DNA from: Alphaproteobacteria bacterium
GTDB taxonomy: Bacteria > Pseudomonadota > Alphaproteobacteria > SHVV01
DNA length: 64,000 bases
NCBI GenBank assembly: GCA_965224275.1
Contig: CBDCYR010000005.1
Span: forward strand, 386,903 to 450,902
Direction of reading: 5' to 3'
In this document: positions 28,565-58,924 of the stretch, in pieces
Position numbering within the stretch: position 1 is the stretch's first letter
Layout of the letters: every line of letters starts with the position of its first letter
Translations under genes and position numbers: made by a program
The notes under the pieces: generated by a model
What the model saw: only the letters and a program-made list of their open reading frames with translations
Database searches by the model: none
What the model was told of the DNA's origin: nothing

Positions 28565-28598
28565 CGGAACAAACCGATCAACAGGGGAGTTACAGCCC

Positions 28599-29498
28599 AT
28601 GGCCACCTTCACGACCACCGATGGCGTTCAGCTCTATTTCGAGGAAACCGGCGCCGGAACGCCGATCATCTTCGTGCACGAGTTTTCCGGTGACTATCGT
28701 GCCTGGGAACATCAGGTTCGCTTCTTCAGCCGCCGCTATCGCTGCATTACCTTTAACGCGCGCGGCTATCCGCCCTCGGAAGTGCCTGATGATGTCGAGC
28801 TCTATAGCCAGACGCGCGCAGTTACGGATATCTGCGAGACCCTCGATCACCTTGGTATCGACACGGCCCATGTTGTCGGCTTGTCGATGGGTGGCTTCGC
28901 CGCGATGCATTTCGGGCTGGACTACGCCGATCGCGCGCGCTCGGTCGTCATTGGCGGTGTCGGCTTTGGCGCCGACCCCAGTACCGCCGATAAGTTCCGC
29001 GACGAAGTCGAAGCCGTCGCCCGGCGCTGGGAGGACGAAGGCCCGGAGATATTCGCGCCGATCTATGGCCGGGGTCCGGGCCGCGAGCAGCTCGAAAACA
29101 AGGATCCGCGTGGCTTCGATGAATTCATCAAGCAACTCCAGCAACATTCCGGCCGCGGCGCCGCAATGACGCTACGCGGCGTGCAAATGCGCCGGCCCTC
29201 GCCGTGGGACCTGCGCGACCGTCTCGCCGAAATGACCGTTCCCGCCCTCGTCCTGCATGGCGATGAAGACCGCCCGGCGTTGCCGACCGGCGTGTTCCTC
29301 AAACAGACGATCCCCACAGCCGGCCTGGTGGTCCTGCCCAAGACCGGCCACACCGCCAACCTCGAAGAACCGGCCGCCTTCAATCAGGCGGTCCAGGATT
29401 TCATCCTCACCGTCGACAATGGCCGCTGGGAGCGCCGCGACAAACGCACCGAAAGCGAAGCCATCCTCTTAGAGTCCGACTCGAAACTCTATGTTTGA
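28599..29498 (+). CDS. Alpha/beta-fold hydrolase; native last two codons and stop (EK*) replaced by 8 IS-encoded residues because IS5 copy 2 inserted at 29472
   Basis: GLSMGG nucleophile elbow. ORF ends ...ILLESDSKLYV* inside the IS. Removing the IS with TSD TTA restores ...ILLEK*. Confidence 0.7.
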   Translation: MATFTTTDGVQLYFEETGAGTPIIFVHEFSGDYRAWEHQVRFFSRRYRCITFNARGYPPSEVPDDVELYSQTRAVTDICETLDHLGIDTAHVVGLSMGGFAAMHFGLDYADRARSVVIGGVGFGADPSTADKFRDEVEAVARRWEDEGPEIFAPIYGRGPGREQLENKDPRGFDEFIKQLQQHSGRGAAMTLRGVQMRRPSPWDLRDRLAEMTVPALVLHGDEDRPALPTGVFLKQTIPTAGLVVLPKTGHTANLEEPAAFNQAVQDFILTVDNGRWERRDKRTESEAILLESDSKLYV

Positions 29499-30403
29499 TA
29501 ACAGTACCTTGCGAGCCGCCTTGTGAGGAGTCGGATGTTGGCGACAAGAATCCATGCCTGTGCGGAGGCGATTGATTTCTCCCAATCCTTGGCCAGTCGA
29601 CGGCATCGGTTGAGCCAGGCGAAGGTCCTCTCGACGACCCATCGTCTGGGCAGGAGCTCGAAGCCCTGGGCGGTGTCTGAGCGCTTGATGATCTCGAGCT
29701 TCCAGCGGCCGATGTCCTCAAGGGCGCCCTCGAGTTTCGGTCCCGCGTAGGCGGCGTCGGCGAAGAGGTGACGCAGCCGGGGGAAGCGATGACGGATCGA
29801 TTTGAGGACCTCGGGCGCGCCGTCGCGGTCCTGGATATCGGCTGCGTGCACGATCAGGCCGACCAGCAGGCCGAGTGTATCGGTGACGATGTGACGCTTG
29901 CGGCCCTTGATCTTCTTGCCCGCGTCATAGCCCCGAACACCACCGCTTTCCGTGGTTTTCACGCTCTGGCTGTCGATCACCCCGGCGCTCGGGCCGGCCT
30001 CGCGTCCTTCCAGCTCCCGGGCCGCCATGACCAGGTGATGGTTGATGCTCTCCAGCAGGCCGTTGGAGCGCCAGTCGTAGAAATAGCGCTGGACCGTGGA
30101 AGGCGGAGGGAAGTCGTTCGGCAACATCGCCCACTGGCAGCCCGTCGAGGCCATGTACATGACCGCATCCATGACATGGCGCAGGTCCGTCGTCCTCGGC
30201 CGGCCGATCTTCTTGCGCGGCGGCATGAGCGGCGCGATCAACGCCCACTCTCGATCCGTCAGGTCGCTTGCGTAGCGCCCGCCACGGCGCTCATAATTCG
30301 GGCGAGTGATTTCGGTCCACATGTTGTGCCTCCTCGTTTGCTTTGACACAACCGAGTAAGCCACAACCGACTGAAATCACTCAACTAGTTTCGGGTTGGC
30401 CTC
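29472..30403 (-). mobile_element. IS5-family insertion sequence copy 2, 932 bp, TSD TTA
   Basis: Identical to copy 1. TTA at 29469-29471 and 30404-30406. Confidence 0.9.
29489..30364 (-). CDS. IS5-family transposase
   Basis: Identical protein to copy 1. Confidence 0.85.
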   Translation of the reverse strand: MAYSVVSKQTRRHNMWTEITRPNYERRGGRYASDLTDREWALIAPLMPPRKKIGRPRTTDLRHVMDAVMYMASTGCQWAMLPNDFPPPSTVQRYFYDWRSNGLLESINHHLVMAARELEGREAGPSAGVIDSQSVKTTESGGVRGYDAGKKIKGRKRHIVTDTLGLLVGLIVHAADIQDRDGAPEVLKSIRHRFPRLRHLFADAAYAGPKLEGALEDIGRWKLEIIKRSDTAQGFELLPRRWVVERTFAWLNRCRRLAKDWEKSIASAQAWILVANIRLLTRRLARYCYQT

Positions 30404-33089: not shown

Positions 33090-34148
33090 TCATCGTTCGC
33101 GTGCCGCCGCTTTGACATGGTTAAGCCGTTCAAACAACGCATCGTAACTCGGCACCACACGATAGTGGGCGCAGCGGGAAATTTCCTCCTCTAACGAGTC
33201 CCATTGGATTGCGGCCAGATGATCGGCACTGAAAGCCGCCATTACTGTGGGATCGGCCATCTGCACCACCGGATTAACCGTACCCTCGCTCAGGGCCACC
33301 GACACGGCAACGGCCGGCCGCAACAAATAGTCGAGAAAATCCTCGGCCAAGGCGGGCGCGGCTGCGCCGGCAAGCACCGAGGTTACTTCGGCGAACACGA
33401 TACCGCCTTTACCCTCGATCGGGCCGCGTTTAGGCGTGATCGCCCGGATGTTGTGGTGGCCCTCGAGACGCGCCGGTGAGGCGCTGAACACGCCGCCCGA
33501 TAGGTAGAAATCGATCTCACCGTTCACCAACGCGCGATTCATGGCGATGTGATCGGGGGTCATCACGGTCGCACCGTCGAACCATCGGCTTGCCGCCTCC
33601 GTAAAACGGTCGAGATCGTCGTCGTTTTTTGGCTCGAACGGGTCGAGACCGGTGCCGATACAGATGTGGAACACATTGAAATCGTCATATTCAAGAACCC
33701 CGTATCGTCCGGTGTGACGGGGATCGTCTACCAGATGAAAGCCCTGGTCTTCCGCCGCATCGCGCGAAATCCGATCGCTGTTGACCACCAGATTGAACGG
33801 ACCGAAGCGTTGACAGATGCCGATCAGGGCGCTGCCGTCGGCGTCTTTGGCCCACTGATAGAGATCGGCAAACTGCGGCAACCACCCGGCTACGCAGGCC
33901 CCGAAGCGATCCCCATCGAGCTCCCGGATCAAACCCCGTGGATGGAGCACATCGCGCACAAAAGGGTTGTTCAAATTTACGACGTCCCAAGCGTCGGCCT
34001 CGGGCCCGGCCAGACGATCCACCGTTCCCGCGTCCGAGACGTGGGCCTCACCGCGCACCGTAATCCCGTGCTCGGCGGCAAAGGGATCGAGCAATGCCGG
34101 ATAATCGTAGCCTTCCCAACACAGCACGTTGAGGTCTGAGCGAGCCAT
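33090..34148 (-). CDS. Periplasmic-binding-protein-fold protein (PotD/PotF-like SBP family 1) without obvious signal peptide
   Basis: 352 aa. Weak family assignment by fold-typical spacing only; N-terminus MARSDLNVLCWEGY has no signal sequence. Confidence 0.35.
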   Translation of the reverse strand: MARSDLNVLCWEGYDYPALLDPFAAEHGITVRGEAHVSDAGTVDRLAGPEADAWDVVNLNNPFVRDVLHPRGLIRELDGDRFGACVAGWLPQFADLYQWAKDADGSALIGICQRFGPFNLVVNSDRISRDAAEDQGFHLVDDPRHTGRYGVLEYDDFNVFHICIGTGLDPFEPKNDDDLDRFTEAASRWFDGATVMTPDHIAMNRALVNGEIDFYLSGGVFSASPARLEGHHNIRAITPKRGPIEGKGGIVFAEVTSVLAGAAAPALAEDFLDYLLRPAVAVSVALSEGTVNPVVQMADPTVMAAFSADHLAAIQWDSLEEEISRCAHYRVVPSYDALFERLNHVKAAARER

Positions 34149-34167: not shown

Positions 34168-35145
34168 TCAGGTATCGAGCGCGGATTCGTGGAACAGTTG
34201 TTCGACCGGGATCGGACGGTCGATCAGCTTCTGGTCGGCAACGTAGCCGATGAACTGCTCGATGTTGGCGCGGTTGGCGGCTAGGCCCGAGGGGAACAAG
34301 TCCTCACCCAGCGTATCGCGCTGCCATTCAAACTCATTGCGCGCAAACACCAGCAGTGAGAACCCCGGATCCTCGTAGAACTCCGCCGTCTTGCGCTTGG
34401 CATCCTCCCAGCAGTCGATCATCGCGCGCGGCAACCAGGGATCCGCCTCGACGAGTTCGCGCGCGAATACCAGTAAATGCATGATCGGGCAGTAGCCGAA
34501 CTTCTCGAAGTGAAGCAGTGATTCGGCGCGCGCGTCGGGGAACAGGCGTCGCACCCGGTCCGGGTTGGCCAACACGGCCGACGGCGGCAGCGGGTGAAAC
34601 ATCGCGTCAAGTTCACCGTCGACCAGCATCTGGCCGGCGTCCTTGCCCTCGGGAATGTTCTGGACAGAGATTCCATCTCCGGCCCACGGTAACTCCTCGT
34701 GATATTGGATATGCCAGTCGATATCTTGCCAGGGTACGCCGTACTCCGATTTGAGATCGCCCTTCGCCAGCACGCACAACGTGGTTTGGAACGACCACAC
34801 GCCTACCCGCTTGCCGATCAGGTCGGTCGGCTTGTCGATCCCGGCATCGACATTGACAAACATGCAACTCTGGCTGAATAGCCGGCGTGGGAACACCGGT
34901 GTCGCCACGAAATCATCGCTGCGGCTCGACGACATGATGTAGGACGCCAACGATTGCTCGCAGATATCGAATTCGCGATCGCGAAACATGCGTCCATGAC
35001 GATCGATACCGTCACGTCGGCCCGGATCAAAACCGACGCCAACCTCGAGCGCCTTGAATTCGATCCCCTCCGGCGCCGCGACCGTTCCCATAAAGAAGGG
35101 CGCGTGACGGTCGAGCCGTTCAAGAGCAATCGTAAGGGTTCGCAT
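34168..35145 (-). CDS. NMT1/THI5-like (SsuA-fold) protein, 4,5-dihydroxyphthalate decarboxylase-like
   Basis: 325 aa. Assignment by recollection of PhtD/NMT1-like family features; low confidence. Confidence 0.35.
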   Translation of the reverse strand: MRTLTIALERLDRHAPFFMGTVAAPEGIEFKALEVGVGFDPGRRDGIDRHGRMFRDREFDICEQSLASYIMSSSRSDDFVATPVFPRRLFSQSCMFVNVDAGIDKPTDLIGKRVGVWSFQTTLCVLAKGDLKSEYGVPWQDIDWHIQYHEELPWAGDGISVQNIPEGKDAGQMLVDGELDAMFHPLPPSAVLANPDRVRRLFPDARAESLLHFEKFGYCPIMHLLVFARELVEADPWLPRAMIDCWEDAKRKTAEFYEDPGFSLLVFARNEFEWQRDTLGEDLFPSGLAANRANIEQFIGYVADQKLIDRPIPVEQLFHESALDT

Positions 35146-35452
35146 ACCGGCCTCGTCGAGGTTTGGTTAGGGACCGCGCGGGCGCTGCAGCGGCCCTGCT
35201 GCCGCGCAACTAAGACGCGATAACGTATACGGTTTCCGGCCGAAAACCATCATGTGGCCATCTGTTTTGCAGAGTTCGGCAGATCATTCCATGACTACCC
35301 GCCGACATCGGCGCGCTGGCGTGTGGGTTGATGGATGATGTGTAAAATGCCGGCATCATTAACCTAAGTTGGTGAGCGCCGAACATTATCGGTCAGGGTT
35401 GCGAGTGATCGGCGCACCATTCACACTGGGCGATCGAACCAGGAGCAAAGTT

Positions 35453-36553
35453 ATGTTTCTCAGGAATTACTGGTACGCAGCAGGGTTTAGCGAGGAAGTC
35501 GGACGCGATTTTCTCGCCCGCACTTATCTCAACGAAGACGTGGTGATCTTCCGTAAGGAAGACGGCACGCCGGTCGCATTGGAAAACCGTTGCGCCCATC
35601 GCCGCCTGCCCTTGTCGATGGGTAAGCTGATCGGCGATACCGTCGAGTGCGGCTATCACGGTTTGCTCTACGATTGCGCCGGCGCCTGCATCAAGATTCC
35701 AGGCCAGGACCGTGTTCCTAAAGGCACCGGCGTCAAGTCCTACCCGATTGTTGAGCGGCACCGTTATCTATGGATCTGGATGGGCGATCCTAAACGCGCC
35801 GATGAGGCGGAGATTCCCGATTTCAGCCGCATCGACGATCCCGCCTATGGCGTCTCCAACATCAAGCTTCGCCACAATGCCCACGTGCAACTCCTTATCG
35901 ATAATTTGATGGATTTATCACATCTTGCTTATGTCCACAGCACCACCACGGGAAGCCCGCAAATTGCCGAGCTCGCCGAGGTCGATACCATCCGTGAGGG
36001 CAACACAGTCAGCGTCAAGCGATGGATGGAGGATGTACCGGCACCGCGAACCCACCGCGAATTTGGCGGCTACAATGGCAATATGGATAGCTGGCAGGTA
36101 TCGGAGTTCAGTCCCCCAACCTATGTACGCGTTAGCTACGGTTCGCGCGGGACCGGCAACGGCGTGCCCAAAACCGACTGGTTCGACGATCAGGGACACT
36201 GGGGGTTCTACGTGTTTCACGGCCTGACGCCCGAGACCGATATGACGGCCCATCAATTCCGCTACATCGCCTTCGCAAAAGGCATCGGCAATAAGAAGCA
36301 AACCAAGGAGTTCATCCGTCAGTGCGATCAGATCATCACCGAGGACGCGGTTGTCTTCCCGATCCAGCAACGGGCCATCAACGATGATCTAGCCGAAACC
36401 GACGCCTGGAACATCAACGAACGGGTCCGCTTGATCCACGACGGTGGCCTCCTGCAATCGCGCCAGATCGTTGAGGATTTGTTGGCCCAGCAAGCCGCCA
36501 AGAAAAAGAAATCGGCGCGTAAAAAGCCCGGCAAACGCGCCGCTGCCCGTTAA
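35453..36553 (+). CDS. VanA-like Rieske oxygenase (vanillate O-demethylase oxygenase / KshA-type), copy 1, with Lys/Arg-rich C-terminal tail
   Basis: AGGAG RBS then ATG 35453 (MFLRNYWYAAGF). CAHRRLPLS...CGYHGL Rieske motif. Tail AAKKKKSARKKPGKRAAAR. Confidence 0.8.
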   Translation: MFLRNYWYAAGFSEEVGRDFLARTYLNEDVVIFRKEDGTPVALENRCAHRRLPLSMGKLIGDTVECGYHGLLYDCAGACIKIPGQDRVPKGTGVKSYPIVERHRYLWIWMGDPKRADEAEIPDFSRIDDPAYGVSNIKLRHNAHVQLLIDNLMDLSHLAYVHSTTTGSPQIAELAEVDTIREGNTVSVKRWMEDVPAPRTHREFGGYNGNMDSWQVSEFSPPTYVRVSYGSRGTGNGVPKTDWFDDQGHWGFYVFHGLTPETDMTAHQFRYIAFAKGIGNKKQTKEFIRQCDQIITEDAVVFPIQQRAINDDLAETDAWNINERVRLIHDGGLLQSRQIVEDLLAQQAAKKKKSARKKPGKRAAAR

Positions 36554-36573
36554 CGTTTCCAAGGAAGATCAAC

Positions 36574-37734
36574 ATGTTTCTGAGAAACCACTGGTACGTG
36601 GCCGCTTGGAGCGATGAACTCGGCAAAGACCCGCTCGCGGTCAAAATGCTCAATGAAGACGTCATGCTTTATCGCAAGCAGGATGGAACGCCGGTCGCGC
36701 TCGAAGATCGCTGCGCCCATCGCCGGCTACCGCTTTCGGAAGGAAAACTGATCGGCGACACCGTCGAGTGCGCCTATCACGGCCTCACCTATGATTGCAA
36801 TGGTACCTGCATCAAGGTCCCCGGTCAGGGCCGCTGGCCCAAGAAACTGGGCGTCAAATCATATCCGGTCGTCGAACGGCACCGGTTTATCTACGTCTGG
36901 ATGGGTGATGTCGAGGACGCCGAGGAGGCGCTGATCATCGATTTCCCGCTCCTGACCGACCCCGCATGGGGGGTGACCAAGATCCACCTCGATATCAAGG
37001 CCAACTACCTCCTGATCATCGACAACCTGCTCGAACTCAGCCACGTCGCCTACCTTCATTCGTCGACCATTGGCAACGCCCCGGTCGCCGAAGACGCCTA
37101 TGTTGCCTTCCATCGCGAGGGTAACGCAGTCCGGGTGATGCGTGAAATGGTCGACGTGCCGGCAGCCCGTACCTATGCCGAGTTCGGCGGTGAAGTCGCC
37201 AATTTCGATCGCTGGCAGACCTCGGAATTTCGCCCGCCCGCTTATTTCCTGATCAACAACGGGTCTGAAGCCACCGGTCGCCGGGCACCGGGCGACCATC
37301 GGCTGTGGGATCGCGGCGAGTGGGGCTTCCAGGTCTATCACGGGATCACCCCCGCCACCGAGAAGACCACGCATCAGTTTTGGGCGATCTGCCACCCCTT
37401 GGCGATGGTCCCTAAAAAGGGCCGCAAGGAGTTTTATCGCCAGTGTCATGAGGTGATCTGGGAAGACGTTGGCGTCTACCAGGCGCAACAGGTTTCACTC
37501 GACACCGATCCCGAGGGTCCGAGCGCCGACAACGTCAACGCCAAGGTGCGAATTGATTACGACGGCGCGTTCTTCGAAGCACGCCGAGTCATCAAGCGGA
37601 TGCTGAAAGAGGAAGCCGCGGCCGCGAAAGCCAAAAGGGCGCGCAAGTCGAAAAAGCGCGGCCGCAAGACTGCTCCGGTTGCCTGGATTTCTGTGCGCGG
37701 CGAACAGCAAGCACACCAACAGGCTGCTGAATAG
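36574..37734 (+). CDS. VanA-like Rieske oxygenase, copy 2, with Lys/Arg-rich C-terminal tail
   Basis: AAGGAAG RBS. MFLRNHWYVAAWSDE; CAHRRLPLS...CAYHGL. Tail AKAKRARKSKKRGRK. Confidence 0.8.
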   Translation: MFLRNHWYVAAWSDELGKDPLAVKMLNEDVMLYRKQDGTPVALEDRCAHRRLPLSEGKLIGDTVECAYHGLTYDCNGTCIKVPGQGRWPKKLGVKSYPVVERHRFIYVWMGDVEDAEEALIIDFPLLTDPAWGVTKIHLDIKANYLLIIDNLLELSHVAYLHSSTIGNAPVAEDAYVAFHREGNAVRVMREMVDVPAARTYAEFGGEVANFDRWQTSEFRPPAYFLINNGSEATGRRAPGDHRLWDRGEWGFQVYHGITPATEKTTHQFWAICHPLAMVPKKGRKEFYRQCHEVIWEDVGVYQAQQVSLDTDPEGPSADNVNAKVRIDYDGAFFEARRVIKRMLKEEAAAAKAKRARKSKKRGRKTAPVAWISVRGEQQAHQQAAE

Positions 37735-38406
37735 GCGATCACGGAGGTATCGGTGTTTCTGAGAGATTATTGGTACCTCGCGGCCTGGGCGCGTGACGTT
37801 GGGCGCGATCCGCTCGGGCGCGTGATGCTCGGCGAACCCGTGGTCTTGTTCCGCAAGCAGGACGGCACGCCTGTCGCTTTGGAAGACCGTTGCATTCACC
37901 GCCGCCTGCCGTTGTCGATGGGCAAGATGATCGGCGACGAGTTGCAATGCCATTACCACGGCCTGGTGTTCGACTGTTCGGGCGCGTGCGTCAAAATCCC
38001 GGGTCAGGATCGGGTCCCCAAATCGGCCCGGGTCAGGAGCTACCCCGTCGTCGAGCGCAATCAATGCGTCTTTGTCTGGATGGGCGATCCCGCCCAACCG
38101 GACGAGTCAAGGATCCCCACCCACTTTAACCTGCTCGATGAAGAGGGCTGGACCTCGAGCCTGGTCTATCGCCCGGTACGTTGCCACTACGAACTGATCA
38201 ACGACAATCTTCTCGATCTGTCCCACCTTGCCACGGTGCACGCCTCGACCGTCGGCACCGGCCACGTTGCCGATTTCGCCGATGTCGAAACCGAGCACGA
38301 GGGTCATCACATCAAAGTTTCACGCTGGACGATGGACGTGCCGGCCGCGACCACCTATCAGCAGTTCGGCAATTACGAGAGCAATATCGACCGTTGGCAG
38401 GTCTCA

Positions 38407-39338
38407 GAGTCCGACTCGAAACTCTATGTTTGATAACAGTACCTTGCGAGCCGCCTTGTGAGGAGTCGGATGTTGGCGACAAGAATCCATGCCTGTGCGG
38501 AGGCGATTGATTTCTCCCAATCCTTGGCCAGTCGACGGCATCGGTTGAGCCAGGCGAAGGTCCTCTCGACGACCCATCGTCTGGGCAGGAGCTCGAAGCC
38601 CTGGGCGGTGTCTGAGCGCTTGATGATCTCGAGCTTCCAGCGGCCGATGTCCTCAAGGGCGCCCTCGAGTTTCGGTCCCGCGTAGGCGGCGTCGGCGAAG
38701 AGGTGACGCAGCCGGGGGAAGCGATGACGGATCGATTTGAGGACCTCGGGCGCGCCGTCACGGTCCTGGATATCGGCTGCGTGCACGATCAGGCCGACCA
38801 GCAGGCCGAGTGTATCGGTGACGATGTGACGCTTGCGGCCCTTGATCTTCTTGCCCGCGTCATAGCCCCGAACACCACCGCTTTCCGTGGTTTTCACGCT
38901 CTGGCTGTCGATCACCCCGGCGCTCGGGCCGGCCTCGCGTCCTTCCAGCTCCCGGGCCGCCATGACCAGGTGATGGTTGATGCTCTCCAGCAGGCCGTTG
39001 GAGCGCCAGTCGTAGAAATAGCGCTGGACCGTGGAAGGCGGAGGGAAGTCGTTCGGCAACATCGCCCACTGGCAGCCCGTCGAGGCCATGTACATGACCG
39101 CATCCATGACATGGCGCAGGTCCGTCGTCCTCGGCCGGCCGATCTTCTTGCGCGGCGGCATGAGCGGCGCGATCAACGCCCACTCTCGATCCGTCAGGTC
39201 GCTTGCGTAGCGCCCGCCACGGCGCTCATAATTCGGGCGAGTGATTTCGGTCCACATGTTGTGCCTCCTCGTTTGCTTTGACACAACCGAGTAAGCCACA
39301 ACCGACTGAAATCACTCAACTAGTTTCGGGTTGGCCTC
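38407..39338 (-). mobile_element. IS5-family insertion sequence copy 3, 932 bp, TSD TCA
   Basis: TCA at 38404-38406 and 39339-39341. One nucleotide difference from copies 1 and 2. Confidence 0.9.
38424..39299 (-). CDS. IS5-family transposase
   Basis: Identical protein to copies 1 and 2. Confidence 0.85.
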   Translation of the reverse strand: MAYSVVSKQTRRHNMWTEITRPNYERRGGRYASDLTDREWALIAPLMPPRKKIGRPRTTDLRHVMDAVMYMASTGCQWAMLPNDFPPPSTVQRYFYDWRSNGLLESINHHLVMAARELEGREAGPSAGVIDSQSVKTTESGGVRGYDAGKKIKGRKRHIVTDTLGLLVGLIVHAADIQDRDGAPEVLKSIRHRFPRLRHLFADAAYAGPKLEGALEDIGRWKLEIIKRSDTAQGFELLPRRWVVERTFAWLNRCRRLAKDWEKSIASAQAWILVANIRLLTRRLARYCYQT

Positions 39339-40055
39339 TCAGAATATTTCCCGCCTTCCTATTGCCGCATCAACAACGGCGCCGCGGCGGTCAATACCGG
39401 CGCGCGCGAGGGCAAGGGCGAAAAGCGCTGGGATTTCTGGGTCAGCCACGGCATCACGCCGGAGTCCGAAACCTCGACTCACTATTTCTGGGCCCTCGCC
39501 CATCGCACCTGGACCAACAACCAAGACGACATCGAGGAGTTCCACCGCCAGTGCCATCACGTCGTCGGCGAAGATCTTGCCGTGTTTGCGGCCCAGCAGG
39601 CATCTATCGACCTCGACCCCGGCGCGCCCACCCTCGATATCCGCTACGACGCCGGCCCCATGATGGCCCGCCGTATCATCAACGAACTGCTAGAGGCCGA
39701 GCGAACACCTCCTGCAAACCACGAGTAGCGGTTCTGCAGCCCTTTGGGTGTTCCGCTAACCCAACCGTCGAACCGCGCATGCGGTTGTGGCGCTCTTGGG
39801 TATTTTGATTAGAGGCGGAGGCGTCCGGCTAGTTCGGGCAGAACATCCCAGAAGTTCTGCCAACCCAACACCGGACATTTCTAAGCGCTCGTGGGTCGCA
39901 CACGAATCATCATCGACGGCCTGCTCCCGTGAGCCGGTCTTGATCATTCCCCTCCTGCGGGTAAAGGACGGTCGCGTCCATTCGAACCTCAGGAATAGAC
40001 CGGGGCCGAAGCTCCATCTTGATTCGAATGACACTCGTACTATATATTATTACGA

Positions 40056-40697
40056 ATGTCACAAACACGATCCATGGACACGCGCGAATCCATCGTCGAA
40101 GCAGCCACGACGGTGTTCAGTCAGCACGGCTATCGGGGAGCGTCTGTGCGCGAGATCTGTGCACGCGCAGGCGCTAGCGCGAATGCGATCACATACCACT
40201 TCAAATCAAAAGAGCAGCTCTATCGGCACATTCTTGGCAGCTTCGCGTCGTTGCAGCTCGAGTACGCAAAGACAGTGCTTTCGACAGACCCAAGATCGCA
40301 GCAAGAGTTTGTGATTCGCCTGGAGCTATTCTTCGAGCAGCTTCTCGACGTCTACATCGAAAATCGCGAGACGATTCAGATCTTGTTTCGCGAGTTCAAG
40401 CAGTTGCTTCCTCACGGCAACGACGGTGTCGTCGGCGAGATGGTCAAGACCAGCTATGCGATCGCTGAGTTTATCAACAGAGCGATGGACCTTGGCTTTG
40501 TTCAGGCCGACGTAGACCCTGATATCGTGGCTGGCCTGCTAATGGACCGTTTGCTCAATCAGGCGCGTTTCGTCGATTCACACCGGATCTTCTTCAGCGC
40601 ATCGACGCTCGACACCGAGTATCGCGCCCACTGGGTGCGAGCAACGCTGCGAATTGTTTTCGACGGTATCAACGCCCGGGATGAGCCCGTTGCGTAA
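40056..40697 (+). CDS. TetR-family transcriptional regulator
   Basis: N-terminal HTH ESIVEAATTVFSQHGYRGASVREICARAGASANAITYHFKSKEQLY. Start may be ATG 40074. Confidence 0.75.
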   Translation: MSQTRSMDTRESIVEAATTVFSQHGYRGASVREICARAGASANAITYHFKSKEQLYRHILGSFASLQLEYAKTVLSTDPRSQQEFVIRLELFFEQLLDVYIENRETIQILFREFKQLLPHGNDGVVGEMVKTSYAIAEFINRAMDLGFVQADVDPDIVAGLLMDRLLNQARFVDSHRIFFSASTLDTEYRAHWVRATLRIVFDGINARDEPVA

Positions 40698-41465: not shown

Positions 41466-42602
41466 GTGGCCGGACAATACACAGCGATGATCTCAGGCGA
41501 TTCGCACATTTTCGAGAAAACGGATCTGTGGCGAAACGCACTTGGCGACAAATACGGCGACGACATCCCGCACGAGTTCTACGAATATAGGGGCAAGAAG
41601 GGGACCTACTTCTATACCGGCGCCCAGGTGCTGCTGACCGCCGGAGCTGATGGTGAGCACAAGCAAAGTGGGCTTCACCTCTCTGGCTACGACCCGGAAA
41701 AGCGGATCCAATACCAGAAGGATGCCAATGTCCTAGCCGAGGTGATCTACCCGACCTACGGCCTGATTGTGATGCAGAGCAAGCACCACGAGGCACTGAA
41801 CGCGGTGGCCGAGGTCTACAACGACTGGCTGTACAACGATTTCCTCTCTTACGACACGACGCGGTTGCTCGGGGTCGCCATGATCCCGACCACCAATGTC
41901 GATTGGGCGATCAAGGAACTCGAACGCTGCGTGAAGATGGGCTATGTCGGGGTCTGCTTCAATTGCCGCAATCTCGAAGGCACCCCGCCCTATCGCGATC
42001 CGGTCTACGACCCGCTGTGGGCGCGCTGCGCGGAAATGAATATTCCGGTCACGCTGCATTCGATCACCGGCCGAGTCCACGATCCGCTCCACCCCCATAA
42101 CGAAGACGAACTCATGGACGCGCCACGCTTGGCGCTGGATATCTACAATGAGATCCAGGGCACCCTTGGCAGCGACATTATTTTTGGCGCCGTGCTGGAT
42201 CGCCATCCCGATCTCAAAATCGTGGTCAGTGAGTTCGAACTTTCCTGGCTGCCCAACTTCGCCTTCCGCCTCGATATGATCAAAGACGGTTTTGCCAGCC
42301 GGATCACGTTGCCGAAACTGGAAATGAAACCAAGCGACTACTTACGCGAACGTTGTTATTTCGGCTGGATCGATGATGGTCGCGGGATGCTCGGGGTCGA
42401 AGAGGTTGGCGCCGACCGGGTGATGTGGGGCTCCGATTTTCCCCATGTACGTTCGGTCGGTGTTGATGCCCAGAGCGTTGTCGGCAAGATGCTGAGTAAC
42501 CTGGCGCCCGAGGATCAGGACAAGATCGTCGGTCTCAACACCGCGGAGCTCTACAACATCAACCACGAAGAGCTCTATTGGACGAAGCAAGCGGCCGAGT
42601 AG
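41466..42602 (+). CDS. Amidohydrolase-2 (PF04909) family enzyme, ACMSD/LigW-type non-oxidative decarboxylase-like
   Basis: GTG start after AAGGAGAAAACC. 378 aa. Motifs GDSHIFE, HS (His) region and WGSDFPH. Confidence 0.65.
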   Translation: MAGQYTAMISGDSHIFEKTDLWRNALGDKYGDDIPHEFYEYRGKKGTYFYTGAQVLLTAGADGEHKQSGLHLSGYDPEKRIQYQKDANVLAEVIYPTYGLIVMQSKHHEALNAVAEVYNDWLYNDFLSYDTTRLLGVAMIPTTNVDWAIKELERCVKMGYVGVCFNCRNLEGTPPYRDPVYDPLWARCAEMNIPVTLHSITGRVHDPLHPHNEDELMDAPRLALDIYNEIQGTLGSDIIFGAVLDRHPDLKIVVSEFELSWLPNFAFRLDMIKDGFASRITLPKLEMKPSDYLRERCYFGWIDDGRGMLGVEEVGADRVMWGSDFPHVRSVGVDAQSVVGKMLSNLAPEDQDKIVGLNTAELYNINHEELYWTKQAAE

Positions 42603-42649
42603 TTATCCCGGACATTTCTGCACCGAAAGTCCGGTTTGCCTCGAAGTGC

Positions 42650-44050
42650 GGACGTTCCAACAAGGCACACGAAGGCCGCTAATTAGCCAATACCGGTCGT
42701 GGCCGCATGAAGAAAAGTCAGCCCAGACGAGAGCGGGCCTACCACGGCCATAAGATGTTCATCGGCGCTGCGGATCTCGACCGCTCGATAATCGCTTGGC
42801 AGGCTGGGGGCGAAACGCAATGAAGAGTTTGCAGGACATCTTTGATGCTGTGGACGGCGCCCTGTTCGGCATCTAGGTGCCAAAGTGGTAGCTGTTAGAG
42901 ACCACTTAAAAGGGGAGCCGTCCGACATGAATGTTAGCAGAATTGGTCTAGATATCGCGAAGAACGTGTTTCAGGTTCACGGCGTCGATGAGGCGGGTGA
43001 AGTCGTCATCCGCAAGCAACTGAGGCGCAGCCAGGTGATGCCCTTCTTCGAGAAGCAGTCTTCGTGCCTGGTCGGCATTGAGGCCTGCGCCACGTCCCAC
43101 CACTGGTCGCGCGAGCTGCAAGCTTTGGGTCATGAGGTTCGGCTGATGCCGGCGGGCTATGTGAAGGCCTACGTGAAGCGCAACAAGAACGATGCGGCCG
43201 ATGCTGAGGCGATCTGCGAGGCAGTGACACGGCCGACGATGCGGTTCGTGGCAACCAAGACCAAGGAGCAGCAGAGCGTCTTGATGGTGCACAAGACGCG
43301 ACAGTTGCTGGTCCGTCAACGGACCATGCTGAGCAATGCGATGCGCGGCCACTTTGCTGAGTTTGGGATCACCGCGCGGGTCGGACGCCTGGGCTTGGGG
43401 AAGCTCCTAGCGATTGTTCAGGATCAAGATGACCAGCAGATCCCCGCCTTTGCTCGGCTGGCATTGATCGCTTTGGCAGACCACTACCAGACGGTACATG
43501 CGAAGATTGTCGCGCTCGAGCGCAGCCTGAATGCTTGGCATCGCTCGAATGAGACCAGCCGACGCTTGGCGGAGATTCCAGGCGTCGGCCCGCTCGTGGC
43601 CACGGCATTGACCGCGAGTGTGACGGATCCGACAGTCTTCTCTTCGGGGCGAAGTATGGCGGCCTGGATCGGATTGGTGCCGAGGGAGAACTCCACTGGC
43701 GGCAAACGCCGGCTCGGACCGATCTCCAAGCAGGGCAACCGCTATCTCCGATGGATGCTGGTGACAGGCGCTATGGCGGTGATCCGTTACGCCAAGAAAA
43801 CGGGCTTTAAGAAACGACCTTGGTTGGCCCGATTGGTCGAAAACCGCCCGATCAAGCTCGCGGCGGTGGCGCTGGCCAACAAGATCGCCCGCATCGCCTG
43901 GGTGATCATGGCGCGCGGTGAACGCTATAAGGAGCCGGCCCTGACGGCCGCATAAAGAAATCGGTGTAGGCCGGAGCCTACGCAACGAAATTGGGAAGGG
44001 CTGACGACGTCATGCAGCAACGGTCGATCCGGGGATTGGAAGAGCCCGCT
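42650..44050 (+). mobile_element. IS110-family insertion sequence (approximate extent; this family lacks classical IRs/TSDs so ends are not determinable by eye)
   Basis: Contains IS110-type transposase gene. Hairpin GTAGGCcggaGCCTAC just downstream of tnp stop. Confidence 0.45.
42927..43955 (+). CDS. IS110-family transposase (DEDD type)
   Basis: AAAGGGGAG RBS then ATG 42927 (MNVSRIGLDIAKNVFQVHGVD...). C-terminal IS116/IS110/IS902 domain (LVPRENSTGGKRRLGPISKQGNRYLR). Confidence 0.85.
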   Translation: MNVSRIGLDIAKNVFQVHGVDEAGEVVIRKQLRRSQVMPFFEKQSSCLVGIEACATSHHWSRELQALGHEVRLMPAGYVKAYVKRNKNDAADAEAICEAVTRPTMRFVATKTKEQQSVLMVHKTRQLLVRQRTMLSNAMRGHFAEFGITARVGRLGLGKLLAIVQDQDDQQIPAFARLALIALADHYQTVHAKIVALERSLNAWHRSNETSRRLAEIPGVGPLVATALTASVTDPTVFSSGRSMAAWIGLVPRENSTGGKRRLGPISKQGNRYLRWMLVTGAMAVIRYAKKTGFKKRPWLARLVENRPIKLAAVALANKIARIAWVIMARGERYKEPALTAA

Positions 44051-44313
44051 TGGGTCAACGCATCTCTAGAATGCGTATTTTTGATTTGGGACCCAATCTG
44101 CGGAGAGCATGAGGGCCAGCGGTCACACGCACCGCATCAACAGGCCGGACAGATGACCGCACCCGACCAACCCTGCATCGACATCAAGAAAACCTTGCCA
44201 ATAACGCGCCGTCCACAGATGACCCAAACAGCATTATCGAGCTGAGCTTTTTCAATTTTCGCAACGCTATCACCGCGGCATATTTCGCTGACGAAAAACT
44301 CCGCATCAAGCGT

Positions 44314-45471
44314 GTGAACGAAAACTTCCGTGCGTTCTTCCCCGTTCTCGGCAATGTCTCCGATGCTTATTTCCCGGATGTCTTGAAGCAACTCAGCGTC
44401 GGTGAGGAGCATATCGAATCGTTCGAACGTGAGTTGAGCGAACTAGGCCGCGTGCTAATCCCGATTATCCCGATAACGATTGACGGCGATGAACGTGTCT
44501 ACTCCTTGCTCTCGACGCGGACGACGGACGACGATTTTTCGTATCTGAACGGCGTGCAAGGCCAGTTCATCGACCGCACGCGCGAGCACGAATTGCAGAT
44601 GGCGCATGAACATTTGTTGGAGGAGAAGGCACGCGATAACGAGAGTATCAAGGCCAAGAGTCAGCAGTTGCAAGACCTGGCCAACCGTTTGGCCAAGTAT
44701 CTTTCGCCGCAGGTGTATGACTCGATCTTCGCGGGGGACCGCGACCCCAACGAGAATTTCGCACGAAAAAACCTTACGATCTTTTTCTCCGATATCGTTG
44801 GGTTCACCGATATCAGCGACGGCATGGAACCCGAACGGCTTGCCTTCGTCATCAACACTTATCTCAGCGAGATGTCGAAAATCGCCATCGAGAACGGCGG
44901 CACCATCGATAAGTTTATCGGCGACGCGGTTCTCGTTTTCTTCGGCGACCCGGAGACGGAAGGCGACACCAGCGACGCGATCAAGTGCGTAAGAATGGCA
45001 CTACGGATGCGTGAACGTGTTGCCGAACTTCAAAGTCTTTGGCAGTCGAAGGGGGTATCCAAGGCGCTTCAGGTACGAATGGGTATCAACACTGGATATT
45101 GCACGGTTGGCAATTTCGGATCCGACCAGCGCCTTGAGTACACGGTCCTCGGCAGTCAGGTGAACATGGCGGCTCGCCTGCAAGGCGCTACGGAACCGGA
45201 CACAATACTGATCAGCGAATCAACTTACCCTCTCATCAAGGACGTCGCCGACTGCACACCGATGGGAAACATTACGCCGAAGGGATTCACGCGGCCGATC
45301 GAGACATACCGCGTGGACGGTCTTAAGGTTGACGCTGACTCGGACCTCGCATCACAGCCGCTCACCCGGGTCGGCCGCCACGTCCAGGTGAGCATTTCGA
45401 ACCGAAGCAACATCCGAGAAGCGATCATTGAACTGCGAAAGATCCAAGAAGAGTTCGAAGAACAAAGTTGA
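44314..45471 (+). CDS. Class III adenylate/guanylate cyclase (CHD domain) with N-terminal PAS-like region; N-terminus possibly truncated
   Basis: Cyclase motifs FSDIVGFT and GDAVLVFFG. The only in-frame start is GTG 44314. About 200 bp upstream are open in frame and encode PAS-like sequence (SIIELSFFNFRNAITAAYFADEKLRIKRVNENF) with no start codon. Confidence 0.65.
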   Translation: MNENFRAFFPVLGNVSDAYFPDVLKQLSVGEEHIESFERELSELGRVLIPIIPITIDGDERVYSLLSTRTTDDDFSYLNGVQGQFIDRTREHELQMAHEHLLEEKARDNESIKAKSQQLQDLANRLAKYLSPQVYDSIFAGDRDPNENFARKNLTIFFSDIVGFTDISDGMEPERLAFVINTYLSEMSKIAIENGGTIDKFIGDAVLVFFGDPETEGDTSDAIKCVRMALRMRERVAELQSLWQSKGVSKALQVRMGINTGYCTVGNFGSDQRLEYTVLGSQVNMAARLQGATEPDTILISESTYPLIKDVADCTPMGNITPKGFTRPIETYRVDGLKVDADSDLASQPLTRVGRHVQVSISNRSNIREAIIELRKIQEEFEEQS

Positions 45472-45670
45472 GGCCCTCCGGTCGTACTGGCTAGGCCGGT
45501 TTACCTCGAAAGCCGACATAATTTTCGTCAATCTTGAGGGCTAGGTTTAGCCAGTTCCAGTCGTTCGATGAACAAAGAAAAAGCGGCCCAAAGACCGCTT
45601 GTTAAGGCGTTGGTGCCAGATTTTTAGGCGTCTTTACGTCTTCGCCACCCCACCGCCAGCATTAGTCAAG

Positions 45671-46858
45671 TCAAGGCGCCTTGGTCTGAGTTTCGGCCAT
45701 GGGGTCGTTAGCCCGCCGTCCAACAAGTTGACTCCATTCGTCGTAAAAGACACGCACGCTTTCGTCATCCTGAGTTGCGTGTCCTTCATGACGACCGAAA
45801 ATTCCGTACCGGGCTGCCCGCTCGCGGTTGGCTCGCGCGACGCACTCGACCGCAATTACGTCTTCGGGGACGTTACGTCCAAACGGCCCCCAAAACTCGT
45901 TGTGGTGCTCTATACGCATGGCGCGGTCTTGCGCGGATTCACCCTTTACGCCCAGTCCCCGCCACTCAACGAGTGTTTTCTCGGCGCTGAGCGCATTGGT
46001 CGTGTGAATCATCATCACGGTAGCGCGGCATACAAATACCGTATTCGGAAAGAGACCGACGACGCGGGTTTCGCCGGGATGTAGGCCAGGAAGGGTATTG
46101 TCGCGCTGGCCAGAACTGCCGATGTTTTGATAGCTCTGCCGCGTCGGTTCGAGCGAAGCATGACCATGAGGATAGAAATGCCAAGGCGTATCGAAGTACC
46201 CCTCTGTGCGGATTCCAACGCGACGGTTCAGATAGTGAAGATACTCATGGTACAGCTCCGTGCTCACCTCGTGCCATTGCTTCCAGTTAGCATCGACGAC
46301 TGCGCGATGCAGATGAAAAACCTCCAGTTCACCGGTTGCGAAAATGGAGGTCAGGCTCTCAAATGCATCACCTAAATAGTCGTCAAAAGAATTCGCCGAC
46401 GTATCCAAGTTGACGAACACTAAATCATGGCGGGTTTCCGCCCTAACTTCGCGTAAGCCCCGATCGGCCTTGCAGATCCCCGCTTCCTCGTATCCTTCTT
46501 CACGTGGAATCGAAATGCATTTGCCCGAGGTGTCATAAACCCAGTTGTGGAAAAGGCACGTCCATGACTTGGCATTGCCCGCAGCTTCTCGCAGCACCAG
46601 AGCAGAACGATGCGAGCAAGAGTTGATAAAGGCGCGGATTTGCCCATCATTGTCCCGGGCAACGATCAGTGGATACCCGGCGTACTCGAAGGTTCGGTAG
46701 TCGCAGGGAACCGGGATCTCGCTTTCGTGGCAGATGAATTTCCACGTCTTGCGAAAAACGAACTCCCGCTCATCGCGAAATATGTCGGGGTCTGTGTATA
46801 TTCTCGAGTCAACATAATCCCGTTCGTGCAGTGCAGTCTGGTGGGCCGAGCCTCCCAT
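45671..46858 (-). CDS. Rieske non-heme iron oxygenase alpha subunit (no adjacent beta subunit or reductase)
   Basis: CSHRS...CLFHNW Rieske motif. NWKQWHEVSTELYHEYLH catalytic motif. Confidence 0.8.
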   Translation of the reverse strand: MGGSAHQTALHERDYVDSRIYTDPDIFRDEREFVFRKTWKFICHESEIPVPCDYRTFEYAGYPLIVARDNDGQIRAFINSCSHRSALVLREAAGNAKSWTCLFHNWVYDTSGKCISIPREEGYEEAGICKADRGLREVRAETRHDLVFVNLDTSANSFDDYLGDAFESLTSIFATGELEVFHLHRAVVDANWKQWHEVSTELYHEYLHYLNRRVGIRTEGYFDTPWHFYPHGHASLEPTRQSYQNIGSSGQRDNTLPGLHPGETRVVGLFPNTVFVCRATVMMIHTTNALSAEKTLVEWRGLGVKGESAQDRAMRIEHHNEFWGPFGRNVPEDVIAVECVARANRERAARYGIFGRHEGHATQDDESVRVFYDEWSQLVGRRANDPMAETQTKAP

Positions 46859-46938
46859 TCTTGCTCCGTCCTTGCCATGATCGCCTCAACCCAGAAGTCA
46901 CCCAGTTTGTCGTCGTATTGTAGCCCGCAATAAACATA

Positions 46939-47049
46939 GCGCTCCAACGGCCTGCTGGAGAGCATCAACCATCACCTGGTCATGGCGGCCCGGGAGCTGG
47001 AAGGACGCGAGGCCGGCCCGAGCGCCGGGGTGATCGACAGCCAGAGCGT
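46939..47049 (+). mobile_element. Internal fragment (~111 bp) of the IS5-family element (encodes SNGLLESINHHLVMAARELEGREAGPSAGVIDSQSV of the transposase)
   Basis: Exact match to an internal segment of the 932-bp IS. No ends or TSD, so it is a remnant. Confidence 0.7.
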
Positions 47050-47265
47050 CAATTTCTATTTGCCGCAGTCTGGTGGCAATGTCCGAGGTAGCTCCCCGTT
47101 GGTCGGTGCGGCCATGAGTCGGAGCTGTTAACGCGGCGCCGATGCGTTGTATGCGCTGACGCGGCCATGATACGCTCCTCTTAACAATAAAATATCGTGT
47201 CGGTTCGATTGCCCGCATTCATTCGAAGCGGTGATCCGACTTCAAGCGACCAAGGGGAGGACAAC

Positions 47266-48276
47266 ATGATCCGTATCTGCAGCTTGTTACTCGTTGGGTT
47301 TATCGCGTTGGTGGCCATTACGTTCTCGAACAATGTCATGGCCGAAGAAGTAACGCTTCGAGCGGTGAGTTACACGCCGATCAACACTGAAACCTCGTCG
47401 CACTTCGCCAGATTCATTGACAAGGTCAACGCCGAGGGCAAGGGACTCGTGCAGATTAAATACCTTGGTGGCGCGCCGAAGGTCATGACCATTTTTGAGG
47501 TCGGTAACGCGGTCAGCAAGGGCAGTATCGATATCGCCAACGTAAGTGGAGTTTTCTATGCCTCCCTCGTGCCTGTCGCAAACGCAACGTTTTACTCCGA
47601 ACACACCATTCAAGAACTGCGCAAAATGGGTGTCTGGAAATTGATCGTTGATATTCATCGGGAAAAGATGAACGTCCACTATCTAGCCCGCGCGCGCGAC
47701 CGCATGACCCTCAGTTACTTCGTCAACAAGAAAATTACCAAACCCGACTTCAGCGGCATGAAAATGCGATCAAGCACGCTGCATACGCCATTTATCAAAG
47801 CACTTGGCGGGACGCCGATCGAGACCGGGCTCCCTCAAATTTACCCTGCGCTCGAACGAGGCGTCGTTGACGGGCTCGGATTCGTGACCTCTCTGTTGAT
47901 GGATTTCCGTCTTCATGAAGTCGTCAAGTATCGCATTGAACCCAGTTTTTACCGGTTAGACATCGCGATTCTGGTCAATTCGCGGGTGTGGGAAAACAAG
48001 CTCAACAACGAGCAACGGGCGTTCCTCACCAAGATGGGAGAGTGGGTAGAAAGTATCAACGTGGAGGACATCGAGAAGGACAAAGCGGCCAAGAAGCGCC
48101 AGGAAGATGCCGGAATGAAGGTAATCCGGTTCACCGGACAGGATTGTATCGACTACATTCGCAAGGGCTACGAAGCCGGATGGGCCGCGGTTACCAAGCG
48201 CGATCCCGAAAACGCGAAGAAGCTCAGGAAACTGATCTACAATCCGGCCGCGATTGAAAAAGCATTCTGTTCGTAA
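47266..48276 (+). CDS. dctP: TRAP transporter substrate-binding protein (DctP family)
   Basis: AAGGGGAGG RBS then ATG 47266. Signal peptide MIRICSLLLVGFIALVAITFSNNVMA. DctP-like body. Confidence 0.75.
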   Translation: MIRICSLLLVGFIALVAITFSNNVMAEEVTLRAVSYTPINTETSSHFARFIDKVNAEGKGLVQIKYLGGAPKVMTIFEVGNAVSKGSIDIANVSGVFYASLVPVANATFYSEHTIQELRKMGVWKLIVDIHREKMNVHYLARARDRMTLSYFVNKKITKPDFSGMKMRSSTLHTPFIKALGGTPIETGLPQIYPALERGVVDGLGFVTSLLMDFRLHEVVKYRIEPSFYRLDIAILVNSRVWENKLNNEQRAFLTKMGEWVESINVEDIEKDKAAKKRQEDAGMKVIRFTGQDCIDYIRKGYEAGWAAVTKRDPENAKKLRKLIYNPAAIEKAFCS

Positions 48277-48342
48277 TCCACATGACATCTCGGGCGGGGA
48301 ACTGAAGCGCCGCAGGCGCCGCAGTCCCCGGTTCGCGGGCTC

Positions 48343-48879
48343 GTGAGGCCACCTCGCATGTTTGCTATGGCAGCGATCTATCGGGTGGTCCTCGAGCTCT
48401 GCGGGAGGCTCACCGGCCTCAGTATCGGCATCATTGCCGTTCTGGTTAGCGTCGACGTTCTAATCCGGAATCTGGGGTTCGCCCCTCTCTCCTGGCTGCT
48501 CGAATCTGTCGAATACACGTTGTACGCCACCACGTTCCTGGCGGCTCCGTGGGTGCTGAGCAAAGGTGCTCACGTTCGGGTCGACCTAATTATCGTTCTG
48601 CTACCCCCAAAGTTCCGTTATGGGCTCGAACTGCTGGTCGATGGGCTTGGCGCTACCATCTCGCTGATTCTGTTTTACTACAGTCTCGGCGAGGCCATCG
48701 ATTCCTACGCTCACGATCGGCTCATTTATAAGACTCTAACCGTGACCGAGTGGTGGTTTCTTGCCATCATTCCCTTCTCCAGTGCTCTTCTGGCGATTGG
48801 GTTTGTCCTGCGGATTCTTCGCACTGTCTCCCACGGCATTGGCGCCGTTGAGGGCACCCGTATCCCGGACGGGTTTTAG
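48343..48879 (+). CDS. dctQ: TRAP transporter small permease (DctQ family)
   Basis: 178 aa, four hydrophobic segments, positioned between dctP and dctM. Confidence 0.6.
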   Translation: MRPPRMFAMAAIYRVVLELCGRLTGLSIGIIAVLVSVDVLIRNLGFAPLSWLLESVEYTLYATTFLAAPWVLSKGAHVRVDLIIVLLPPKFRYGLELLVDGLGATISLILFYYSLGEAIDSYAHDRLIYKTLTVTEWWFLAIIPFSSALLAIGFVLRILRTVSHGIGAVEGTRIPDGF

Positions 48880-48882
48880 AGC

Positions 48883-50199: not shown

Positions 50200-50213
50200 A
50201 CCGCTGCTTCTAA

Positions 50214-51156: not shown

Positions 51157-51395
51157 TAAGGACTCTATCAGGAGCGATATCAATGGTTATTCCGACGCCG
51201 TCTCTCTAATTTGCGACATGTTTCGGTGCTCGTCGCTACGCTGGTGGTTTAGAGGAGATCCGCGGCGGCCGAAAGCGTATTGCCAGCAAACAGCGCCAAT
51301 CAGAGCCCGCGTAGCGCCATCACAAAATGACTAAGCTCGCAGGCGAGTGTATGGTGCGCAACCGAACAATCGTCGTGTGGTAGAGGAGGATTACG

Positions 51396-52325: not shown

Positions 52326-52341
52326 CCAACGTCGATCGGGG

Positions 52342-52362
52342 CTAGTGGATGGAATCCACTAG
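52342..52362 (+). terminator. Perfect 9-bp-stem hairpin CTAGTGGATggaATCCACTAG 17 bp after the amidohydrolase stop; no T-tract, so terminator function is uncertain
   Basis: Seen in sequence. Confidence 0.3.
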
Positions 52363-58875: not shown

Positions 58876-58924
58876 CGCCGCGGCGTAAGCCGCCTCCACG
58901 TAGAAAAGTGAGGAGAACGTACCC

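Follow-up and report, generated by a model that had tools for sequence, protein, structure and literature searches.

A conserved trio of predicted VanA-like Rieske oxygenase genes in Alphaproteobacteria, the third of them recently interrupted by an IS5-family insertion sequence in one strain

The Rieske oxygenases most closely related to the genes described here consist of alpha subunits only. For the dicamba O-demethylase DMO, the product of a single gene in a soil bacterium, the electron donors are separate proteins, and the guaiacol O-demethylase GdmA, whose substrate is uncharged, has its cognate reductase, GdmB. Paralogous alpha-only Rieske monooxygenases can share one reductase: the caffeine N-demethylases NdmA and NdmB, each of which removes a different methyl group from one substrate, both employ NdmD, which is encoded within the same gene cluster. 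In the phthalate 4,5-dioxygenase pathway (pht/oph) a Rieske oxygenase of the phthalate family is found beside a 4,5-dihydroxyphthalate decarboxylase, and the substrate taken up is of the dicarboxylate type. DMO and GdmA are listed as alpha3 O-demethylases, and a 2026 paper reports VanA enzymes to be mostly monomeric in solution. The three genes with which we are concerned, c1, c2 and c3, lie in a stretch of 64,000 nucleotides from what is apparently an uncultured marine alphaproteobacterium (GenBank assembly GCA_965224275.1, contig CBDCYR010000005.1, positions 386,903–450,902). The whole stretch is called the window, and all positions are counted from its first letter. They are three consecutive open reading frames (ORFs) on the forward strand, of which the third is interrupted by an insertion sequence (IS) of the IS5 family. 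We hold it to be probable (roughly 70%) that they make up a single operon and encode three oxygenases of the VanA/DMO/GdmA type that diverged long ago and are not redundant, each of which would assemble into its own homotrimer, receive its electrons from a reductase encoded in trans and act on an imported aromatic substrate. That, within this reading, the reaction is specifically the O-demethylation of aromatic acids is a tentative assignment, somewhat short of even odds.

Each of the three genes has its own Shine-Dalgarno site. c1 (35453–36553, forward strand) has an AGGAG eight nucleotides ahead of its ATG start and encodes 366 amino acids; c2 (36574–37734, forward strand), with AAGGAAG upstream, encodes a predicted alpha-only Rieske oxygenase of 386 amino acids. 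c3, which begins with GTG behind a GGAGG, is present in two parts, the first (37753–38406, forward strand) comprising codons 1–218 with the Rieske domain and both iron-binding histidines, the second (39342–39728, forward strand) codons 219–346 and the stop codon, with the probable third iron ligand, D296. The genes are separated by 20 nt (c1/c2) and 18 nt (c2/c3). Their products are 54% (c1/c2), 51% (c2/c3) and 47% (c1/c3) identical, and the motifs MFLR[ND].WY, C.HRRLPLS and C.YHGL are found in all of them alike. In Pfam searches all three proteins matched Rieske (PF00355; 74–82 bits) and VanA_C (PF19112; 116–150 bits, the cutoff being 23.5), which bears out the original prediction, made from the letters of the DNA, of three consecutive same-strand genes for VanA-like alpha-only oxygenases. 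The same prediction had called them KshA/VanA-type, of which only the VanA part holds: KshA_C reached 22.9 bits in c1, under its cutoff of 23.3, and had no match in c2 or c3, and LigXa_C had none in any of the three. Genes for a beta subunit were not found either, there being zero Ring_hydroxyl_B matches in the window.

By sequence, the nearest solved structures are those of DMO/DdmC (PDB 3gb4, 3gke; E 3e-39) and GdmA (PDB 7qwt; E 2e-37); the 3-ketosteroid 9-alpha-hydroxylase KshA matches with E 1e-9. When the uninterrupted c3 allele was modelled as a monomer with AlphaFold (AF2; mean pLDDT 94.2), the fold matched DMO with a template modelling (TM) score of 0.88 at 30% identity, GdmA with 0.86 at 29% identity and KshA with 0.71–0.73 at 19–20% identity. 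Judged by sequence and model, the trio is thus predicted to consist of alpha-only Rieske oxygenases of the VanA/DMO/GdmA type. KshA falls into the wider class of alpha3 Rieske oxygenases too, but membership of the trio in the KshA family was rejected on the values just given. Also rejected was SdmA, a sterol 4-beta-methyl monooxygenase, which was the best match in NCBIfam but with 97–113 bits fell far below the cutoff of 600.

The residues predicted to bind the metal centers are complete in all three proteins. C47, H49, C66 and H69, the Rieske ligands, align with C49, H51, C68 and H71 of DMO; they are invariant across an alignment of 92 sequences, and in a comparison of the three clades described below one sequence has a Tyr for the second histidine. 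A DxxHxxxxH iron motif aligns to D157, H160 and H165 of DMO, both histidines being invariant in all three clades. A C-terminal ED motif has an Asp (D296 in c3) that is likewise invariant, or nearly so, and that we infer from this conservation to be the third iron ligand. The carboxylate that bridges the Rieske His of one subunit and the iron His of the next (Asp157 in DMO) is a Glu at residue 154 of c2 and in 12 of the closest c2 orthologues (at least 79% identity); the c1- and c3-type proteins all have an Asp there, as do the more distant c2-type proteins. The exchange of Asp for Glu is conservative, and a Glu is functional at the bridging position in the carnitine oxygenase CntA. A separate observation concerns the C-termini: the c1- and c2-type proteins of the marine lineage end in polybasic tails with 10–18 Lys or Arg in the last 45 residues (36470–36550 in c1 and 37600–37731 in c2, forward strand), and the c2 tail terminates in a conserved W(I/L)SVRGEQ..QQAAE motif. 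Such tails are not present in c3-type proteins nor in distant orthologues; that they could serve in the docking of an acidic electron donor or in oligomer assembly are guesses.

Related loci were collected by a scan of species-representative genomes combined with contig look-ups, which yielded about 25 (L001–L025). Every locus with a c1-type gene also has a c2-type and a c3-type gene where the contig extends far enough (those of L002 and L013 end inside c2), and in more than 20 loci, from uncultured and mostly marine Alphaproteobacteria, there is one of each type. Each trio gene in these loci matches best its own counterpart in the window, with 51–94% identity, the positional orthologues of c1 being 55–92% identical. 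In a neighbor-joining tree of 273 sequences the c1-, c2- and c3-type proteins form three separate clades with 10–13 locus-derived orthologues each. A recent tandem duplication is ruled out by these separate clades together with the positional orthology. The earlier description of the genes as paralogous but diverged understates the age of the split, the trio being conserved in many lineages. The ratios of non-synonymous to synonymous substitution rates (dN/dS) are 0.13 (c1), 0.06 (c2) and 0.17 (c3) in comparison with L021 (97–98% DNA identity), and 0.05, 0.08 and 0.13, respectively, in comparison with L015 (about 78% DNA identity). These values indicate that all three genes are under purifying selection, and the trio is an old one-of-each unit with conserved synteny. 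The order is c1-c2-c3 in the closer lineages and c1-c3-c2 in the distant loci L023, L024 and L025, the genes overlapping in L023 and L025.

In the window the gene divergent from c1 (34168–35145, reverse strand) encodes a protein of 325 amino acids that has no Pfam match and is a homologue of 4,5-dihydroxyphthalate decarboxylase (PDB 9jp7, E 2e-40). It adjoins the trio in most related loci, where it is the most constant non-transporter neighbor; for example, in L009–L011 it is co-directional with the trio at a distance of 3 nt. The importer next to the trio is either a tripartite ATP-independent periplasmic (TRAP) system or an NMT1-type (NitT/TauT-type) ATP-binding cassette (ABC) system. The TRAP genes directly follow c3 in L001, L005–L008, L012, L015, L016, L021 and L022, and in relatives with about 78% DNA identity c3 is directly followed by dctM and dctQ on the reverse strand and by dctP. 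Their counterparts in the window, dctM (reverse strand), dctQ (reverse strand) and dctP (forward strand, 62352–63419), recognized by Pfam and synteny, are found at 60276–63419. The NMT1-type transporters adjoin the trio in L009–L011 and L023–L025.

What is missing from this arrangement is the electron-transfer partner. As originally predicted, the window has genes for neither an FNR/VanB-type reductase nor a [2Fe-2S] ferredoxin (Pfam searches of 48 predicted proteins and motif scans of ORFs of at least 60 amino acids), and no VanB-/FNR-type reductase or ferredoxin was found beside the trio in L001–L025. The only 2Fe-2S proteins seen were CoxS-like subunits, with genes next to those of molybdopterin enzymes. 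The local absence of a reductase is a general property of the module and not peculiar to the window. In total, the 64 kb hold six Rieske alpha genes, and near none of them is there a gene for a beta subunit, a ferredoxin or a reductase.

Among the described systems, DMO is the best match of the trio in sequence and in fold and has the Rieske and iron ligands at the same positions, but it is only about 30% identical, is encoded by a single gene and has Asp157 where c2 has a Glu. GdmA, the second-best match, is about 29% identical. It works with a cognate reductase, and near the trio there is no reductase gene; its substrate is uncharged, whereas the trio is associated with a decarboxylase homologue and with importers for anionic or polar solutes. 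VanAB shares with the trio the strong VanA_C match, and relatives of the trio are automatically annotated as vanillate O-demethylase; however, vanB is found neither in the window nor in the related loci, and there are three diverged genes rather than one. NdmA and NdmB are more remote (about 21% identity, TM about 0.72) and catalyze N- rather than O-demethylations. The phthalate pathway has a homologue of the decarboxylase found here and, as the trio module would, involves the import of a dicarboxylate-type substrate, but the similarity of phthalate dioxygenase (7fhr) to the trio is limited to the Rieske domain (63 bits), and the trio module has no cis-dihydrodiol dehydrogenase and no reductase. 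No paper on this trio was found in a literature search.

In the reading that we prefer, each of c1, c2 and c3 would form its own alpha3 ring, by analogy with the known enzymes. A reductase, perhaps together with a ferredoxin, whose gene lies at another place in the genome and which serves all of the trio would pass electrons from NAD(P)H to the Rieske cluster, from which they would cross the interface between subunits to reach the mononuclear iron. Each enzyme would carry out an oxygenation step of its own on carboxylated aromatics taken up by the cell, O-demethylation or hydroxylation being the most likely reactions, and the decarboxylase homologue would then act on the hydroxylated product. 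A fitting possibility would be methoxylated phthalates or benzoates, which would be demethylated and then decarboxylated. In this genome, one of five near-identical mobile copies of the IS5-family element has inserted at the TCA of codon 218, abolishing, in this reading, c3 only.

Several points weigh against this reading. The best characterized relatives are only about 30% identical, the best homologue on plasmids of cultured bacteria is 41% identical, and no NCBIfam equivalog scored over its cutoff with any of the three proteins. The binding protein of the TRAP system finds in the PDB only diffuse matches (about 1e-32) to unnamed DctP proteins, from which a ligand is not inferable. Some of the distant trios are found beside genes for TauD, a sulfite-oxidase-like protein, RidA or hydantoinase, neighbors that would fit non-aromatic or N-methylated substrates. 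The strict one-of-each co-occurrence and the tight or overlapping spacing fit a heteromeric complex equally well as a three-step pathway. And the window is probably from a metagenome assembly.

The alternative that survives best, although we consider it unlikely, is that the trio, rather than acting on lignin-type methoxy-aromatics, N-demethylates or hydroxylates a small polar compound resembling an osmolyte (e.g., a trimethylated amine or a sulfonate) in three successive steps, the compound being taken up by the neighboring transporter. A set of three enzymes, each of a conserved type, would suit such a sequence of reactions, and so would the NitT/TauT-type transporters at six of the loci, the presence of TauD, the sulfite-oxidase-like protein, an electron-transfer flavoprotein (ETF), RidA and DUF1989 close by in L023 and L025, and an isethionate-binding DctP among the best matches to the TRAP binding protein. 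The Rieske N-demethylases NdmA and NdmB are, moreover, detectable relatives. However, the aryl O-demethylases DMO and GdmA are closest by sequence and fold, well ahead of NdmA and NdmB; the most constant non-transporter neighbor is the homologue of an aromatic-acid decarboxylase, whereas the remaining neighbors vary by locus; and genes for the degradation of aromatics are numerous in the host lineage, which is enriched in a humic-rich Arctic layer.

Quite unlikely in our view is a second alternative, namely that the trio is an obligate heterotrimeric alpha-alpha'-alpha'' Rieske oxygenase with three different active sites in one ring, its reductase being encoded elsewhere. The known enzymes of the type are trimers, and one gene of each type is kept in every c1-bearing lineage, over the whole range of 51–94% identity and despite changes in gene order (c1-c3-c2) and transporter type. 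Tight gene spacing, with the overlaps in L023 and L025, would also be expected of subunits of one complex, and the lineage-specific polybasic tails are common to the c1- and c2-types and not to the c3-types. On the other hand, the catalytic sites are complete in all three proteins, so that none is purely structural, and the types are not always found as a set of three: a lone c2-type gene stands beside the decarboxylase homologue in L018 and L014, additional c1- or c2-type copies are present in L016, L022 and L024, and in L009–L011 a transporter operon separates c3 from c1-c2. Strains with a c3 knockout persist, and no heterotrimer of alpha paralogues was found in the searchable literature. 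If this alternative were true, the quaternary arrangement would be new for the enzyme class and the insertion in c3 would silence the whole complex. As to the additional copies, it may be mentioned that L016 and L022 have five Rieske genes in tandem: a g9-like Rieske gene, c1, c2, c3 and an extra c2-type copy.

The IS that separates the two parts of c3 is 932 bp long (38407–39338, reverse strand) and is inserted after codon 218. It is flanked by a 3-bp direct repeat, TCA, of which the left copy (38404–38406) is also codon 218 (Ser) and the right copy is at 39339–39341. Excision of the IS and one TCA restores an ORF of 346 codons with its stop at 39728, and the rejoined junction (...DRWQVS/EYFPPSY..., the slash marking the insertion point) aligns with c1 and c2 across the site. 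As it stands, the truncated ORF continues into the IS to 38433, and its product (P0140, 226 amino acids) has 218 native and 8 IS-encoded residues. An uninterrupted c3 is found in L019 and L020, two contigs of the same species that were assembled independently and from different samples. It is identical to the reconstructed c3 in 1041 of 1041 nt, and its empty-site junction, ...GGTCTCAGAATAT..., has a single TCA. At least five further contigs, all from other samples, encode a protein identical to c2, and on each of them gene 3 is an intact ORF of 346 amino acids; for the exact intact c3 protein (P0254) there are records from 5 contigs, for the truncated P0140 from 1. Because the empty-site allele is 100% identical to c3 after excision, the insertion is real and very recent. 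The original prediction of an IS5 insertion at codon 218 with a TCA duplication, a fully recoverable reading frame and a recent disruption is therefore confirmed in all its parts. That the junction is instead an assembly artefact, an outcome that the prediction had itself raised and in which a repeat-induced chimera among the five IS copies would hide a c3 that is intact in the organism, is highly improbable: a metagenome assembly with five copies at least 98.7% identical within 64 kb does invite mis-joins, and every other conspecific contig seen has an intact c3, but both junctions consist of exact IS ends and a perfect TCA duplication, of the same TNA type as in the other four copies, the DNA on both flanks is collinear with that of relatives, and a chimeric join makes neither a target-site duplication nor flanks that rejoin to the exact empty site.

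The low dN/dS of c3 argues that it was a selected, working gene until the insertion. A long-dead pseudogene is ruled out by 0 differences in 1041 nt from the intact alleles and a dN/dS of 0.13–0.17. The IS lies within a beta-strand (c3 residues 212–221), between the iron-binding histidines and D296, and since it parts these ligands from each other no iron site can be formed by the truncated product. As the operon ends with c3, which in relatives converges on dctM, the IS should remove the activity of c3 alone and should have no polar effect on c1 or c2. In another assembly (21.6-kb ENA contig; P0234) the c3 allele is frameshifted after about codon 231, yielding a product of 299 amino acids; the frameshift is either a further lesion that arose independently in c3 or the result of an indel error in long-read assembly.

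The IS has imperfect terminal inverted repeats of 17 bp, 14 of the 17 positions matching (GAGTCCGACTCGAAACT and GAGGCCAACCCGAAACT; by sequence comparison at 38407–38423 and 39322–39338 in the c3 copy). Its transposase ORF (38424–39299, reverse strand) encodes 291 amino acids from a GTG, with an alternative ATG at 39257; the protein matches DUF4096 and DDE_Tnp_1 in Pfam and the IS5-family model NF033580 of NCBIfam with 265 bits, the cutoff being 110. With these domains, its GAG ends, the 17-bp imperfect repeats and the 3-bp TNA duplications the element is a member of the IS5 family, within which we take it to belong to an IS1031/IS427-like subgroup. The nearest plasmid-borne relatives are only 73–76% identical in DNA, and it is therefore a new IS of a known family. 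A megablast of 33–45 kb of the window against plasmids matched IS elements only, with identities of 76% at most, and so gave no close relative from a cultured bacterium.

Five full copies of the element, 98.7–100% identical, are found in the window: copy 1 at 25567–26498 (duplication TAA), copy 2 at 29472–30403 (TTA), copy 3 in c3, copy 4 at 50214–51156 (TAA), which has an 11-bp insertion, and copy 5 at 56682–57613 (TAA), which is in inverted orientation. All five are thus surrounded by a TNA duplication. An internal fragment of 111 bp (46939–47049) lies beside a Rieske gene. Only the copy in c3 sits mid-gene and destroys a gene; the other four are intergenic or a few codons from a stop. For example, copy 2 lies at the 3' end of an abhydrolase gene (28599–29480, forward strand) and changes the end of its product from ...LLEK* to ...LLESDSKLYV*, only the last residue being replaced, and this site is empty in some conspecific contigs. 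A gene call on the strand opposite the abhydrolase gene (28590–29147) was discarded as spurious. The insertion sites of this and of other IS elements vary among conspecific contigs, which argues that the elements are currently active. Among the others are two inverted copies, of about 1.4 kb, of an IS256-family element (Transposase_mut; 3849–5243, reverse strand, and 53960–55355, forward strand), and a copy 99% identical to this pair is found in L020 inside the TetR gene downstream of c3.

Between c3 and the ancestral TRAP neighbors there are 20.5 kb of IS-rich DNA of lower GC content (39729–60275), with genes for TetR, SRPBCC, several Amidohydro_2 proteins, another Rieske oxygenase, a second TRAP system, a cyclase and a flavin monooxygenase. 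This is a strain-variable island: 17.7 kb of it (42605–60275) are missing from L021 (97–98% DNA identity), where a single IS1182-like element is found instead. On the other side of the trio, beside the decarboxylase homologue, a gene for a protein with a periplasmic-binding-protein fold (33090–34148, reverse strand; weak SBP_bac_8 match) is retained only in the closer relatives, and its matches, polyamine-binding proteins, are weak. A promoter and terminator scan gave an output no better than that with shuffled sequence, and Rfam had no match across 34900–40300. The palindrome GGTTTCCGGCCGAAAACC (35231–35248) in the divergent promoter region was set aside as a candidate operator, as it is retained only in near-identical strains. 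Catabolic genes are dense throughout the window. There are three further Rieske alpha genes (2145–3746 and 10487–11653, forward strand; 45671–46858, reverse strand), one LigXa_C-like and two Ring_hydroxyl_A, and six Amidohydro_2 paralogues of the LigW/ACMSD type (9441–10343, 14329–15210, 41466–42602, 51396–52325, 57961–58875 and 58925–59881), along with two CN_hydrolases, hydantoinase A/B, CoA ligases and the second TRAP system.

The closest public relative of the window is L002, from the Arctic Ocean metagenome-assembled genome CBN3_323.78, with 92–95% protein identity and collinearity over 27.3–37.7 kb of the window. By its name this genome is apparently UBA2966-CBN3_323 (order UBA2966) of a 2022 Arctic survey. 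In that survey of the Arctic Ocean, genes for vanillate O-demethylase (K03862) were the most abundant marker of aromatic degradation, the UBA2966 genome was confined to the humic-rich layer of maximal fluorescent dissolved organic matter (FDOM), and the presence of several paralogues per genome was acknowledged (PMC9789639).

The trio is a new, uncharacterized set within a known kind of enzyme, and the IS event is an ordinary one. A knockout by an IS is routine, and its value here is that of a clean, datable case of ongoing IS activity in an abundant uncultured marine lineage. More useful is the conserved module, in which three distinct VanA-like oxygenases go together with an importer and a decarboxylase homologue and a reductase gene is locally absent. 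VanA homologues are routinely read as "vanillate demethylase". As at least three conserved subtypes here are only about 30% identical to any characterized enzyme and always occur together, counts of marker genes may overstate the use of vanillate, and they may at the same time overlook a pathway or enzyme complex, as yet uncharacterized, that handles carbon of terrestrial or humic origin in the ocean.

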